Assembly: GCA_965205425.1 (NCBI GenBank)
Contig: CBDBGZ010000009.1
Location: forward strand, 1,088,001 to 1,152,000
Direction: 5' to 3'
DNA: 64,000 bases
Origin: Nitrosopumilus sp.
GTDB taxonomy: Archaea > Thermoproteota > Nitrososphaeria > Nitrososphaerales > Nitrosopumilaceae
Shown: in pieces, positions 55,682 through 60,449 of the stretch
How the letters are laid out: each line of letters opens with the position of its first letter
Position numbering within the stretch: position 1 is the first letter of the stretch
Position numbers and translations under genes: made by a program
The notes under the pieces: model-generated
The model's input: the letters and a program-made list of their open reading frames with translations, nothing else
What the model was told of the DNA's origin: nothing
Databases searched by the model: none

Positions 55682-56245
55682 ATGCCTCAAACTAAGCCAA
55701 TTGTTAGTGTTGAAAATGTTGTTGCATCTGCATCAGTAGACCAAAAAATTGATCTAATTGAAATTACTGAAAAATTTCCAGATACTGAATATCATCCAGA
55801 ACAATTTCCAGGACTTGTATTTAGATTAACAAATCCAAGAACTGCAACATTGATTTTTAGAACTGGTAAAATGGTGTGTACAGGGGCTAAATCAGAAGAG
55901 ATGGCAATCAAAGCAGTCAATACAGTTGTTCAAAAATTAAGAAAGGGTAAAATCAAGATCAAGAAAGATGCAGTTATTACAGTTCAGAATATTGTAGCAG
56001 CAATTAACCTTGGTGGAAAAATCCATTTAGAAAAAGCAGCAAGAACATTACCAAGAAGTATGTATGAACCAGAGCAATTCCCAGGGCTAATTCATAGAAT
56101 GTTAGATCCTAAAACAGTTATTCTATTATTTGCATCAGGTAAATTGGTGTGTACAGGGGCTAAAAAAGAATCAGATGTTTATCGTTCAGTTCACAATTTG
56201 CATGCATTATTAGAAGAAAAAACTCTAATGATATATGATCAATAA
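55682..56245 (+). CDS. tbp: TATA-box binding protein
   Basis: Two repeats of NVVAS/NIVAA, Y.PEQFPGL, GK.VCTGAK. Confidence 0.97.
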   Translation: MPQTKPIVSVENVVASASVDQKIDLIEITEKFPDTEYHPEQFPGLVFRLTNPRTATLIFRTGKMVCTGAKSEEMAIKAVNTVVQKLRKGKIKIKKDAVITVQNIVAAINLGGKIHLEKAARTLPRSMYEPEQFPGLIHRMLDPKTVILLFASGKLVCTGAKKESDVYRSVHNLHALLEEKTLMIYDQ

Positions 56246-56265
56246 TTTTTAGAAGATTTTAAAAA

Positions 56266-56487
56266 TTGACTAAAGATATTTTTGAAGATGAAAAAATTAA
56301 GCTAACTCCTAAAACAGGTTTTGATTTGATTGGCATAGATTATTTTGCAGAGCCTGGAAACCAATTATATTTAATAGAACATTTTGAAATGTATCAAGAT
56401 GCTTTGAATGCAAAAAAAGATAGAAAAAATCAAGACGAATATTTTGTGCTCTATAAAGGAACTGGAAATGAATTTTTCTGCAGATAG
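56266..56487 (+). CDS. Small hypothetical protein
   Basis: 73-aa ORF directly after tbp. Confidence 0.6.
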   Translation: MTKDIFEDEKIKLTPKTGFDLIGIDYFAEPGNQLYLIEHFEMYQDALNAKKDRKNQDEYFVLYKGTGNEFFCR

Positions 56488-56558
56488 ATTAGAAAAATCA
56501 TAAAACTTTACTAAATTTTACAATCTCTCTTATCATTCAGTTAAAAATTAAAAAAACC

Positions 56559-56809
56559 ATGCCTAGCGAAACAAGTGATTTGATTGATACATTATATGAA
56601 AAAGAAAATCCAGTTCAATCTAAACAAATTTCTAAACAAATTATTCGTAAAAGTCCAAAAGCAAAATATCAGATTTTTGATGAAATAGAGTTTACACGTG
56701 GAAGAGAAGTTCTTGGAGATCTAATTGTTCATGGAATGATAGCTTCGGGTGGAACTGACATAGATTGGCTGATTGAACACAAAGGGAGTTTCATCGTTCT
56801 AGAATTCAA
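56559..56809 (+). pseudogene. 5' fragment of a putative PD-(D/E)xK nuclease-like gene cut by IS110
   Basis: TDIDWLIEH...FIVLEF then abrupt change of character; no continuation at the other IS110 end. Confidence 0.5.
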
Positions 56810-58197
56810 CAGTACTTGGGAAAGTAACTACCTGACATCTTCCAAATAGTATTGAGATTTTATTCTCCTAAAGAAATCAACAATAATAACTATAACCATA
56901 TGTGCCAAAATCAGCTAGGAAATTAGATGGTACTTGCATTCGTATCAAGAAAGTAAGAAATGCAAACAAACACACTACCCTTCCTGAAAAAAAATATTTG
57001 ATGTTTGTAGGATTGGATGTTCACAAGAACTCTGTACAGGTGGCAGCAGTAGATGAGATTGGCAAATTGTTATTTAACAAAAAGATTTCCAGTGATTTTT
57101 CTGCTATTAGCAAAATTACATCCAAAATTCCAAAGAACGCAAAATATGTTTTAGAGTCATCATCTGTCTGGTATGGCCTTTATAGACACATGACAGACAA
57201 ATTACATCTTGATGTTATACTATCTAATCCATACAACACAAAGATAATAGCATCATCACTCAAAAAGACTGATAAAATTGATGCGTACCATCTTGCAAAT
57301 TTGCTACGAGGAGGATACATTGCAGAATCATTCGTGCCAGATCACACAATTGTGCAATACAGACAGCTTGTAAGACATCGACACAAGATTGTGCGCATCA
57401 TTGTAAAGATGAAGAATTCCATACATGGTATTACACTACAGGAGGGAATCCATATCAAAGCAACACCATTTTCCTCAGAACACATACGTGCACTTGGAAA
57501 ATTGGAGAGTTATAGAATAGATTCGTACCTACAAAGCATAAAATTTCACAAAAAGGAGGTTGCAAAAATAGATTCCATGATACGTCGCATGGTAAATGAT
57601 AATCCTGATGTGTGTATTTTGACATCAATACCTGGAGTTGGACCATACACTGCATTGAGCATATTCTCAGAAATTGCAGAGATTAGTAGATTTTCAAATT
57701 CTCACAAGTTATGTGCATATGCAGGGATTGTTCCATCGGTGAGAAATTCTGCAGATACAATACATCACGGAAGAATTACAAAGAGAGGAAGCACCATGCT
57801 AAGATGGTTGCTAGTGGAGGCAATTCATGCACATGTTAGATACGCACCAGATAGCGACATTACAAAATTTTACAATCGCATTAAGAAAAAGAGAGGAACC
57901 TCAAAGGCAGCAGTTGCTGCTGCATCAAAGTTATTGCGTGTCATATATTGGATGCTAAAAGAGAGGAGAGAATTTGTGCAAAATTACAGTTAGGACTGCA
58001 AGTCGCGTTAGAGTTTTTGAGGGACAAGGCCTCGTCTGATAACTGCGAACAATCCTAACTAGGATGAAGATAGCATTGAGAGAATAGTCTCGTATGGATA
58101 CATGTCCGCATCTTTTGATTGAAACCATTCTCTAGCGAAAGCCATGCCCTGATGTATGGAAAGAGAAGAAATGTATAAAAACAATTCACATGGATAA
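56808..58197 (+). mobile_element. IS110-family element with ~200-nt 3' non-coding region (ends approximate)
   Basis: DEDD recombinase; no TIR or TSD seen; ends inferred from flanking gene breaks. Confidence 0.75.
56902..57993 (+). CDS. IS110 recombinase/transposase (start may be ATG 57001)
   Basis: VGLDVHK, LESS, KTDKIDA, IPGVG, YAGIVPSVRNSA, ITKRGS..LR. Confidence 0.95.
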   Translation: MPKSARKLDGTCIRIKKVRNANKHTTLPEKKYLMFVGLDVHKNSVQVAAVDEIGKLLFNKKISSDFSAISKITSKIPKNAKYVLESSSVWYGLYRHMTDKLHLDVILSNPYNTKIIASSLKKTDKIDAYHLANLLRGGYIAESFVPDHTIVQYRQLVRHRHKIVRIIVKMKNSIHGITLQEGIHIKATPFSSEHIRALGKLESYRIDSYLQSIKFHKKEVAKIDSMIRRMVNDNPDVCILTSIPGVGPYTALSIFSEIAEISRFSNSHKLCAYAGIVPSVRNSADTIHHGRITKRGSTMLRWLLVEAIHAHVRYAPDSDITKFYNRIKKKRGTSKAAVAAASKLLRVIYWMLKERREFVQNYS

Positions 58198-59165
58198 CTC
58201 TTGTTCCCTTCTCTGGCATCTTTCTTGCATATGCCTTTGCAGGGGTCTCAAGATTATCCCAGTCAAGTGACATGTGTGGCTTTATGTGATTGTACCAGTG
58301 GACCAGCTCATCAATGGTGCCAAACCATTTCTGCTTTCTCTGAATCTCGCCGTGAAATCTTTCGAGCTTGCCATTGGTTTGAGGATGGTTCACTCTTGCC
58401 ATGATATGCTTTATCTCTAATTTTACCAGTTCTTGCTCAAACTGGGATGCTCCTTTTCTCTTGTATTCTGATTGGTTTGCATAAAACTGGGAGCCATGAT
58501 CAGTTAGAATTGATGCAGGCCTACCGTGCTTTGCAATTGCCTCATGTAATACTACAAGTGCGTTATCTGTTGTTGCCTCTGCAAACACTCCATGAGAAAC
58601 GATAAACCTTGATGCGTCATCCTGGTAGCATAAGAACCATCTGCCATCATCTAGCTTCTTCCAGTCAGTATGCCACATGGAGTTTGAATATGTCCTTTCA
58701 TATCGAACCCACTTTCGTCTTCTCCTCTTCTTTGGCTGAGCTTCTGCCAACCCTTCATCTCTCATAATTTTGTGTATGGTATTGTGAGGTATGTGTGTTC
58801 CAGTAGTATCAATTATTTTCTCCAAGAATACTGCAGAACACCTGAACTTTTCAAATGTAGACTGGACAGTCTGCACCATCTGCTCTGTGATTATTCCCTT
58901 TGGCCTTCCAGACTTGCCTAGGATTGGAACTGCACCAGTACGGCGATACCGTGAGTAGAGTTTCTGCACCCACCGAACAGATATCTTCATGGATGAGGCA
59001 ACGTCTGCGTTCTTGGCACCGTCCTCTTTTGACTTGATTATCCAGGATATCTGGATTGGATCTAACTTTTGCATAATCTTGTGATTCTTTCCTCTTTTCC
59101 AAACGTATCTTGACTTTAGTCTGGAAATAATGGGGTGAACTAATTTGAGGATAATAGACTCTACA
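58198..59165 (-). mobile_element. IS481-family element, 3' end truncated by IS110
   Basis: Transposase from ATG 59074: HTH, MWHTDWK, QDDASR, LTDHGSQF, PQTNGKLERFH; left end ~59156-59165. Confidence 0.85.
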
Positions 59166-59431
59166 ATTTCCTTGACATTTTCTTTTGCATCTTTAATTTT
59201 GAAAGTGTAATCAAACAGTTGCCTTCCTTCAGGCCAGGATATTTTGATGTGTTTTTTGTCAGTTACCTCAACTGATGCAATCTGAGAATGCAACCTCTCA
59301 AAGAATATTCCTTTTGATTTCTGCTCCAATACAATTGCATTTGTGGTAACATACATGATTCCTTTACCATGTGGAGAATCGATTTCAAGCTCTTTTTCGA
59401 TTTTTTCATCATTTCTTAATACTAGTGTCAT
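59160..59431 (-). pseudogene. 5' fragment of PH-like-domain protein fused in frame to IS481
   Basis: GKGIMYVTTNAIVLE...IASVE beta pattern; composition changes at IS end. Confidence 0.55.
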
Positions 59432-59567: not shown

Positions 59568-60449
59568 ATGGTTACTGTTGTTCCTGAGAAAAAGGGAAAT
59601 CTAACATATTATTTTCTACGACACAGCTCAGGCACTGATCAACTAAAGCGATATCTGGGAAAAACGATTCCCAAAAATATTGAACAACTAAAAGCAGATT
59701 TTCTTTTGGAATTTTATCAGAAACAATGGAATCCTAATTTTGAATCTATTTACAAAAACTATCAAAATGAAACAAAATCAATTCCATCTACCATAAAACT
59801 ACAAAATTTTGAGAGTTTTGGAATTACATTTACTTACAATACGCAAAGGATTGAAGGATCAACACTAACTCAAGAAGATACCAAAGATTTGTTAATTCAT
59901 GGTATCACTCCAAACAAAAAATCAAAAATTGACACTATTGAGACTCAGAGACATTATGATTTGTTTGTAAAACTAGTATCTTCAAAAAAACCAGATAAAA
60001 TAATATTTGATACAATTCTTTCATGGCATGGAAATATTTTTGAGCAAACACAAATTGGAGAAGCAGGTTCAGTCAGAACATATGTAGTGGGAATTAAAGG
60101 CAATCCAAAAATTCAGTTTGCAACAGTTCCAGAAATCAAACCTAGATTATCTAAGTTATTTACATGGCTTAACAGTTCTAAAAAAGATATGTCTCCAGTA
60201 GAGATTGCATGCAAAGCTCACTATGATTTTGTAGGAATTCACCCTTTTGGAGATGGTAATGGAAGAATATCTAGACTGTTAATGAATTACATTCTCTTCA
60301 AATATGATTATCCACTGATGACAATTTTTAACAAAAACAGAAAACCCTATTTCAAATCATTAGAAAGATCACAGCTAGAAGATAATTCTATACATTTCCA
60401 AAAATGGTTTATGAAAAATTATTTCAAAGAAAATAAAAAATATTTGTAA
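59568..60449 (+). CDS. Fic family protein
   Basis: YNTQRIEGSTLT, HPFGDGNGRISR. Confidence 0.93.
   Translation: MVTVVPEKKGNLTYYFLRHSSGTDQLKRYLGKTIPKNIEQLKADFLLEFYQKQWNPNFESIYKNYQNETKSIPSTIKLQNFESFGITFTYNTQRIEGSTLTQEDTKDLLIHGITPNKKSKIDTIETQRHYDLFVKLVSSKKPDKIIFDTILSWHGNIFEQTQIGEAGSVRTYVVGIKGNPKIQFATVPEIKPRLSKLFTWLNSSKKDMSPVEIACKAHYDFVGIHPFGDGNGRISRLLMNYILFKYDYPLMTIFNKNRKPYFKSLERSQLEDNSIHFQKWFMKNYFKENKKYL

Follow-up and report, generated by a model that had tools for sequence, protein, structure and literature searches.

A predicted bridge/seek RNA in the 3' non-coding end of a probable IS1111-type IS110 element from Nitrosopumilus

An insertion sequence of the IS110 family lies at 56886-58197 of a 64,000-nucleotide (nt) stretch of DNA from Nitrosopumilus sp. 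(GenBank assembly GCA_965205425.1, contig CBDBGZ010000009.1, positions 1,088,001 to 1,152,000), the whole of which we call the window. We find it very probable, from comparison of related sequences, that this element is of the IS1111 type and carries, on the + strand of its non-coding 3' end, the sequence of a bridge/seek RNA, one internal loop of which reads the target and the other the donor. The observations that carry this reading are a structure that covaries among relatives, its strand, complementarity of the guides with the flanking DNA and with the element's ends, and a cut position read from empty sites. An earlier note, made from the letters of the stretch alone, had proposed a thaumarchaeal RNA-guided recombinase with a 3'-encoded guide; covariation, matches of loop 1 to flanks and matches of loop 2 to element ends all support that proposal. 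To our knowledge, every bridge or seek RNA that has been tested at the bench is bacterial, and recombination aimed by an RNA is itself a recent discovery.

The recombinase combines an N-terminal RuvC-like DEDD domain with a C-terminal Tnp domain that carries a conserved serine (Pfam PF01548, 8.9e-22; PF02371, 1e-22), and scores 244 bits against a cut-off of 140 with the NCBIfam model NF033542, 'IS110 family RNA-guided transposase'. Its C-terminal half matches IS621 (8wt6, E = 3.6e-7) and ISCro4 (9t56, E = 5.6e-8); alignments to these two proteins pair KTDKIDA with KTDAVDA and VRNSA with YESGS, and give D6, E52, D91 and D94 as candidate DEDD residues together with the serine of G-I-V-P-S-V-R-N-S-A. 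The intact DEDD plus catalytic-serine enzyme that the earlier note recognised is thus confirmed, and so are the roughly 200 nt of GC-richer non-coding DNA behind it: 204 nt follow the gene (57994-58197) versus 115 nt that precede it (56886-57000), with a G+C content of 0.407 against 0.333 in the window and 0.445 in the RNA core. The coordinates of all features are collected in the table.

The ends of the element are fixed by its copies. Searching the host genome (2.2 Mb, 9 contigs) with 56850-58250 gave 49 matches, among them five full copies at 95-100 % identity with unrelated flanks, which start with ATAAC[T/C]ATAACCATATGTG and finish with ...TTCACATGGATAA; the window copy is 95-98 % identical to the other four, and the right end that had been proposed from the sequence coincides with the point where identity stops. 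The genome also holds one interrupted copy, three copies of an I-type with 99 % identity in the gene but only about 70 % in the 3' end, two diverged copies (G and H), and three identical copies of a 59 %-identical family (M). Unitigs of public DNA runs break at 56884-56889 and 58194-58197. Loose contig ends from four DNA runs over 56600-58500 confirm the same boundaries and add branch points at 57975 and 58017; the contigs of these runs, which are blind to rare forms, contain no joint of the kind expected from a circle junction or an empty site. On the cut-site model described below the element proper is 56888-58195, and the crossover is uncertain by about 2 nt because AT/AA is common to element and targets. 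The joined ends would then read …CACATGGAT|AACTATAACC…, opening with AACTAT after the cut. The two subterminal inverted repeats, CCATATGTG and CACATGG, share 7 base pairs (bp) broken by two extra bases, and related families, whose left ends read AAC|TATATGTG or AAC|CATATGTG, keep a 5-bp repeat, ATGTG/CACAT. The window element is therefore at the short end of the 7-17 bp reported for the IS1111 group (PMC11208160).

Table. Features of the IS110 element and of its predicted guide RNA (positions in the window)
Feature	Position	Strand	Remarks
Whole IS110-family element, 1312 bp	56886..58197	+	identity with four other full copies begins and stops here; flanks differ
Left flank (site X), part of a different repeat	56850..56887		3 intact copies read AATCAACAATAATAATTTCAAAGATG
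Left end AACTATAACCATATGTG	56888..56904	+	AAC are the first three bases of the element, from empty sites in two relatives' genomes
Left subterminal inverted repeat CCATATGTG	56896-56904	+	
Recombinase gene, 330 amino acids	57001..57993	+	ATG 57001; frame open from GTG 56902; stop TAG 57991-57993
Predicted bridge/seek RNA core, about 120 nt	57989..58107	+	five helices, P1-P5, around two internal loops
Helix P1	57989-94/58054-59	+	TAGGA/TCCTA; contains stop codon
Helix P2	58003-07/58044-48	+	TCGCG/TGCGA
Loop 1, 5' strand, right-target guide TTAGAGTTTT	58008..58017	+	reverse complement of DNA right of the element
Helix P3	58018-22/58030-34	+	GAGG/CCTC
Loop 1, 3' strand, left-target guide TCTGAT then AAC	58035..58043	+	same sense as left flank
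Helix P4	58062-66/58103-07	+	GGATG/TGTCC; 99.2 % of cells paired
Loop 2, 5' strand, right-donor guide AAGATAGCAT	58067..58076	+	ATAG, reverse complement CTAT, left-end bases 3-6
Helix P5	58077-81/58088-92	+	TGAGA/TCTCG; 98.8 % of cells paired
Loop 2, 3' strand, left-donor guide	58093..58102	+	ATGGAT, last 6 nt of right end; then 3-nt spacer ACA
TTTT run directly after P4	58113..58116	+	CATCTTTTG, conserved in most of alignment A1
Conserved tail motif CTAGCGAAAGCCATGC	58132..58147	+	CTAGCG...GC[T/C]AT
TATA-like box TATAAAAA, outward-facing	58174..58181	+	20-22 nt before the last base of the element
Right end CACATGGAT	58187..58195	+	
Right subterminal inverted repeat CACATGG	58187-58193	+	
Right flank (site Y), interior of an IS481-like element	58196..58250		17 intact copies read ...CTCATCAATAACTCTTGTTCC...

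The structure of the RNA core was derived with RNAalifold from an alignment of 49 distinct 3' ends of close relatives (A1) and then tested as a fixed structure. In this alignment 98.9 % of 1274 helix cells pair and 12 of the 26 base pairs show compensatory changes on both sides; none of 500 shuffles matched these values, and sliding one side of the helices by 1-3 columns lowered pairing to 31-46 % (maximum 45.8 %). A further 29 more distant matches (A3), aligned by fitting to a covariance model, a procedure that favours the structure, pair in 95.7 % of cells, with compensatory changes in 18 of 26 pairs and at most 44.9 % in the slid controls. The first of two units that the earlier note had folded by eye is identical to helices P1, P2 and P3, all three of which carry compensatory changes. 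Its second unit fared less well: the proposed helix GGATA/TGTCC competes with P4 and its covariation was reached by 412 of 500 shuffles, while GCAT/ATGC, AGAGAAT/ATTCTCT and the GC-GAAA-GC hairpin, 80.2 % of whose cells pair (only 54 % in AAT/ATT), did not survive as drawn. The loops assigned to this unit were wrong in detail, the comparison giving its best support to P4 and P5. Both modules follow the same plan: a stem, a guide strand, a UGAGG-loop-CCUCG cap, a second guide strand ending T-A-N-N, and the closing of the stem.

Non-canonical pairs tell on which strand the structure is read. G.U pairs fill 277 of the 1274 helix cells in A1, including nearly invariant U.G and G.U pairs that close both loops. 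These closing pairs would be A.C on the other strand, and the RNA is therefore read from the + strand, which is that of the recombinase gene. The stop codon TAG and the final sense codon fall within helix P1, and roughly the last 25 bases of the coding sequence are conserved as DNA among families whose proteins share about 60 % identity. The RNA must accordingly begin inside the gene or be cut from its mRNA.

The family is widespread in the class. A covariance model built from the RNA core (R1) matches 16 places in the host genome and, counting that genome, occurs in 21 of 151 sampled Nitrososphaeria genomes, 14 of 48 genera and 5 of 12 families. A scan with one genome per species returned 66 loci encoding relatives, all in records of Nitrosopumilus, Cenarchaeum, Nitrososphaera or Nitrososphaerota, the last being metagenome-assembled genomes, so that the label 'thaumarchaeal' was fair. 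The regions downstream of these 66 loci share one architecture, within which the loop strands vary.

Loop 1 stands out as hypervariable. An alignment of 12 3' ends shows almost no change in the RNA region outside a 9-nt patch at 58010-58018 (variants AGAGTTTTT, GTAATTTAT, AAAATGCTT and GTAATTATT) and, across the loop, position 58036. For the 11 closest RNAs, the 5' strand of loop 1 is variable at 6 of its 10 sites, compared with 14 of 108 elsewhere (Fisher p = 0.0016), and pairwise differences per site are 0.333 in the right-target strand versus 0.033 elsewhere. We parsed 76 RNA copies, from the loci and from the host genome, and could call a right end for 69. These reduce to 57 unique guide/flank pairs from 27 guide classes, and in 33 of the pairs complementarity runs unbroken for at least 6 bases from the right junction; the class-averaged mean is 4.88 against 2.04 +/- 0.28 in shuffled pairings, a value reached in 0 of 20,000 permutations. 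On the left, 39 unique pairs fall into 14 classes and 23 of them match in at least 4 of the 6-7 variable positions, with a mean of 3.55 against 1.58 +/- 0.25, again reached in 0 of 20,000. The earlier note had named other copies, fixed ends, a covariance model and loop/target covariation among the ways to check its proposal: the copies fix the ends, the structure is conserved, and either strand of loop 1 follows its flank beyond any shuffle.

Single elements illustrate the rule. L063 matches its right flank over 11 nt (10 in the scored 10-nt window) and its left flank at 5 variable positions, continuing through AAC. L043 carries the left guide GTTGATAAC and has the left junction GGTTGATAAC, a 9-nt match, with 7 nt matching on the right, and 10 of 11 copies of the L052 type sit in one motif with a right match of 8-9 nt. 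Genome G137, which belongs to a different genus and was outside the model data, holds two types, 20 copies in all. The guide of the second type has TATACTGCG as its reverse complement and meets a flank that reads ATACTGCGG; in the first type, a guide with ...GAG... goes with a flank ...CTC... in 4 of 4 copies, and a guide with ...GAC... goes with ...GTC... in 6 of 10 and with ...CTC... in 4 of 10. The left guide GCTGCATAAC in this genome meets the left flank ...TTATGCATAAC. In other families of the class, L131 and L135 each match at 10 of 10 nt, and several others match with one or two mismatches.

Loop 2 is matched instead to the ends of the element. In 67 of 69 copies the element ends with the same six bases that follow P5 (58094-58099), in one of three states, ATGGAT, ATAGAT or ATGGGT, and the two exceptions are single copies with one substitution. 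The repeat of ATGGATA at 58094-58100 and at the right end (58190-58196), which the earlier note had observed, is this very match between donor loop and right end; the heptamer occurs 12 times across the window. On the other strand of the loop, ..ATAG.. (..AGCAT) goes with the left end AAC|TAT.. (TATA) in 28 copies and ..ATGG.. (..GGTAC, GGCAC, GGTAG) with AAC|CAT.. (CATA) in 21, which makes 49 of 49 concordant for two states. Both left guides are followed by bases that suggest the 'handshake' bases of IS621: AAC after the left-target guide, equal to the first three bases of the element's left end, and three nucleotides after the left-donor guide, which in 18 of the 50 unique cases are identical to the first three of the right flank itself, a count confounded by relatedness. 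This 3-nt match fails in several distant members.

Empty sites place the cut. In the genome of the L052 type (G001), a looser pattern, TTGCT N2-8 ATTCATAC, matches 84 times, mostly as TTGCTTGATTCATAC, and a control pattern 0 times; with the cut marked, the commonest empty form is TTGCT|TGATTCATAC and the occupied site reads TTTGCT-AAC TATATGTG ... CACATAGAT-TGATTCATAC. In the L043 genome, the empty site GAAGGTTGATACATACC occurs 8 times, cut as GAAGGTTGAT|ACATACC, and the occupied site reads GGTTGAT-AAC TATATGTG ... CACATGGAT-ACATACC. It follows from these comparisons that the element starts with AAC and ends with ...GAT, and that both target guides abut at a T|A step. No target duplication is seen, and only 1-3 bases are common to the target and the end of the element. 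As the left guide itself ends in AAC, it spans the product junction, that is, the left flank plus the first three nucleotides of the element. AAC does occur at both junctions of the window copy (56888-90 and 58196-98), as had been noted, but at the right junction it is peculiar to this copy, the other right flanks being different. An alternative 4-nt core common to element and target, ATAA, was considered and dropped, since the empty sites of the two other families assign AAC to the element. The 15-nt motif TTGCTTGATTCATAC, target of an IS110 sub-family, is itself repeated, the pattern that matches it being found 84 times in this single Nitrosopumilus genome.

Together, these data suggest the following scheme. 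An RNA with a core of about 120 nt (57989-58107), possibly extending into the tail, would be transcribed and processed from the 3' end and bound by the recombinase, whose DEDD and serine-bearing domains would hold it and join the ends of the element with the target. Module 1 would recognise the target, its 3' strand ending in AAC, the first three bases of the element. Module 2 would recognise the donor, its 3' strand supplying the six bases of the right end plus a 3-nt spacer and its 5' strand being complementary to bases 3-6 of the left end (CTAT). Strand exchange would take place at the conserved T|A step, without target duplication, presumably through a circular intermediate and with the chemistry that IS621 and ISEc11 suggest by analogy.

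Several observations weigh against this reading. The + strand folds with ordinary energy (z = -0.41 over 216 nt and -1.58 over the 131-nt core), and our case is built on comparison and not on folding energy; an Rfam scan of 56000-59000 at E values up to 10 gave nothing in 57994-58197 and two chance matches inside the open reading frame (ORF); and among the public runs that hold the sequence, six DNA runs from 4 studies, there is no RNA run. Right flanks match over at most 5 bases in 24 of the 57 pairs, and left flanks poorly in 16 of the 39, a set in which left junctions with two candidates were chosen by the loop-2 rule and are, for those elements only, partly circular. In the distant set, where some right-end calls are plainly wrong, at least 7 contiguous matches are found in only 7 of the 23 RNAs with a called right end (of 29). 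Between the 5' strand of loop 2 and the left end, only 4-5 nt pair and one position covaries, so that this pairing weighs little. The window copy itself matches its right flank over only 6 nt (AACTCT with 58196-58201) and its left flank over 2 nt; copy B, with the same RNA, matches over 2 nt and copies D and E over 1 nt. Finally, the two flanks of the window copy come from two different repeated sequences, and hence do not describe a simple insertion.

The 3' end might accordingly be nothing but a structured 3' untranslated region or terminator with protein-binding ends, the protein choosing the target and the variable patch being a mutational hot spot. The subterminal repeats CCATATGTG/CACATGG, the T-run after P4, the ordinary folding energy and the fact that only DNA runs hold the sequence would all agree with this, yet it leaves unexplained why loop 1 matches both right and left flanks as no shuffle does, also in held-out genomes, and why 11 copies with one guide sit in a single 15-nt target motif repeated in their genome; we regard it as very improbable. 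Marginally less probable still is that folded single-stranded DNA serves as the guide, as in IS200/IS605 elements, or that the functional RNA comes from the minus strand. The minus strand of the whole end (57985-58200) does fold better, at z = -3.0 with 1 of 200 shuffles as good, and a minus-strand ORF overlaps 58055-58197. However, the G.U cells described above, loop-closing pairs included, become mismatches on the other strand or in DNA; the long minus-strand helix, AGAGAAT.../...ATTCTCT, is poorly kept in relatives (54-85 % paired); the ORF is an IS481-like gene cut by the insertion; and the recombinase is a DEDD and not an HUH enzyme. Judged by comparison, the G.U evidence for the + strand outweighs the better single-sequence fold of the minus strand.

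A third possibility accepts the RNA family and concerns the window copy alone, which may be a rearranged and possibly inactive relic whose guide did not direct it to its present position. We consider this rather unlikely, but far less so than the two explanations above. Its left flank is from site X and its right flank from site Y, and the reciprocal junctions returned 0 and 0 matches in the host genome; it must therefore have undergone rearrangement, for which recombination or deletion between two copies is the simplest explanation. Its guide fits the target TCTGAT|AAAACTCTAA, for which the genome offers 0 perfect 14-nt sites and 2-4 with one mismatch, and its left and right matches are those short ones given above. 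On the other hand, its ORF is open, all five helices are intact, it is as close to the four other full copies as stated, a second right-end fragment lies at the same place in site Y (C7:83036), and relocation by recombination between copies after insertion would give the same picture without loss of function.

Similar mismatches are seen in other copies. The flank of copy B fits the guide of copies D, E and F; the flank of copy G fits the guide of copy C over 9 nt, and the reverse is also true; copy D and a related element, L033 (in a related genome), have the same right flank and different left flanks, and the guide of L033 fits where that of D does not. Either guides act in trans on copies that share their ends, or copies have exchanged loops and flanks, or both may apply. 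I-type elements give a further case: their left guide, AAACTATAAC, and the complement of their right guide, ATGTGAAAA, jointly spell the left end of related elements (…AACTAT|ATGTGAATAAG…), and I-type copies are located at such left ends, both in a related genome and in the host genome, where I lies by G, K by H and J within a left-end fragment. The window element joins an I-type 5' part (99 % identical) to a G-type 3' part, and its left end reads AACTAT followed by an I-type left end (AACCATATGTG), from which it appears to be a deletion hybrid of such a nested pair. It could still be mobile if donor recognition needs only about the first six bases of the old left end (AACTAT).

These observations can be drawn into a joint reading in which same-ended elements share a pool of guides that act in trans, loops and flanks are reshuffled, I-type elements are aimed at left ends, and the window element is a still-mobile deletion hybrid; the handshake bases, a tail that mimics the left end and an outward-facing TATA box that would turn into a promoter only once the ends are joined may go with it. 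The shared pool and the reshuffling would account for the frequent cases in which the guide of a copy suits the site of a sibling better than its own. We put the whole forward tentatively, as somewhat less than an even chance. Nested pairs of an I-type element within the left end of a related IS110 are found at G000 C9:245988-248658 and C8:46854-49520, and in L032, L034-L036 and L038; several places carry this pair with outer flanks that differ, as though it had moved as a unit.

The closest known systems are the IS1111 seekRNA elements ISEc11, ISPa11 and ISKpn4 (Siddiquee et al., 10.1101/2024.04.26.591405), which likewise have a DEDD recombinase, a long non-coding region downstream of it and subterminal repeats. 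In them tnp precedes the RNA, in which the match to the top strand comes 5' of the match to the bottom strand (10.1101/2024.04.26.591405; PMC13604230), and in the same way the guide described here matches both target strands, top strand first, without target duplication. The element differs from these bacterial relatives in its Nitrososphaeria host and in its short inverted repeat (5-7 bp), the likeness drawn here being one of layout; expression and protein binding have been demonstrated for the bacterial seekRNAs (10.1101/2024.04.26.591405), whereas the archaeal RNA is predicted from sequence.

In IS621, each loop serves one DNA, whose bottom strand pairs with the left guide and whose top strand pairs with the right guide (PMC11208160), and two 'handshake' bases beside the guide pair with the partner DNA after exchange (PMC11208158). 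The archaeal element shares with it (Durrant et al., PMC11208160; Hiraizumi et al., PMC11208158) the two loops for target and donor, the pairing with both strands and the alignable catalytic acidic and serine residues. Unlike in IS621, its RNA is at the opposite end of the element, its guide strands come in the reverse order, the core has about 120 nt against 177 nt, and the target guides abut at T|A without clear overlap on a CT core; candidate handshake bases here follow the left guides (AAC; ACA/ATG), and protein similarity is weak, in the C-terminal half. Among archaeal members of the same protein family, 662 IS110 recombinases have been reported in 2,835 archaeal genomes, in a study that discusses the proteins and a link to Nop5 and whose accessible part contains no description of a guide RNA (10.1101/2024.06.21.599552). 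Durrant et al. predicted bridge RNAs for most ISfinder entries of IS110 and IS1111 (PMC11208160). In the literature available to us no paper was found that describes a guide RNA of Nitrosopumilus or other thaumarchaeal IS110 elements, with the proviso that the supplementary tables of PMC11208160 may include archaeal ones.

The comparison thus supports an archaeal, class-wide addition to the known bridge and seek RNAs, in the IS1111 layout and with natural evidence, of unusual clarity, that the target loop becomes reprogrammed. The 27 right-guide classes in 57 insertions, together with the empty sites, amount to a ready-made specificity map extending about 6-7 nt to the left and 7-10 nt to the right of the T|A step. 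We know of no genetic system for ammonia-oxidising archaea. A native, compact recombinase (330 amino acids plus about 120 nt of RNA) that is programmable as predicted would be an obvious starting point for a genetic tool in these organisms. IS110 elements also rearrange these genomes, as chimeric flanks, nesting and hybrids attest.

The tail beyond P4 (58108-58197) has features of its own, although RNAalifold found no consensus structure downstream of P4 (A1 columns 174-281). The T-run may be an archaeal termination signal for a short form of the RNA. The conserved tail motif contains GC[T/C]AT (58141-58145), which is able to form a helix with ATAGC in the 5' strand of loop 2 (58070-58074): 93.8 % of cells pair, an A-U to G-C change is seen in 10 sequences, the slid controls reach at most 37.7 %, and the window copy has an A.C mismatch. 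The same pentamer is the sequence of the left end that the donor guide should read, and the motif may be a built-in decoy or belong to a closed form of a longer RNA. Near the end, 35 of the 42 distinct right-end tails have T[AT][AT]A[AT]A at a distance of 20-22 nt from their last base. The usual archaeal promoter spacing would put a transcription start just past the end of the element, so this box may be a promoter across joined ends, starting in the left end. It would be an archaeal counterpart of the junction promoter that has been described in bacterial elements (PMC13604230).

The flanks of the window copy consist of other repeated DNA. The IS481-like element on the right has rve domains and about 20 copies in the genome, and scores 191.7 bits with NF033577, below the cut-off of 224. 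The minus-strand ORF at 58055..59431 is its gene, which reads into the IS110 end because the insertion cut off its 3' end. On the left, the repeat (56810-56887; G000 C8:23592, C8:63354, C9:260078 and C5:230391) runs from CAGTACTTGGGAAAGTAACTACC to ...AACAATAATAA over about 80 nt and overlaps the end of a 96-aa ORF at 56559-56849. A gene with a Fic/DOC domain at 59568-60449 (PF02661, E = 2.1e-17) adjoins the two insertion sequences.

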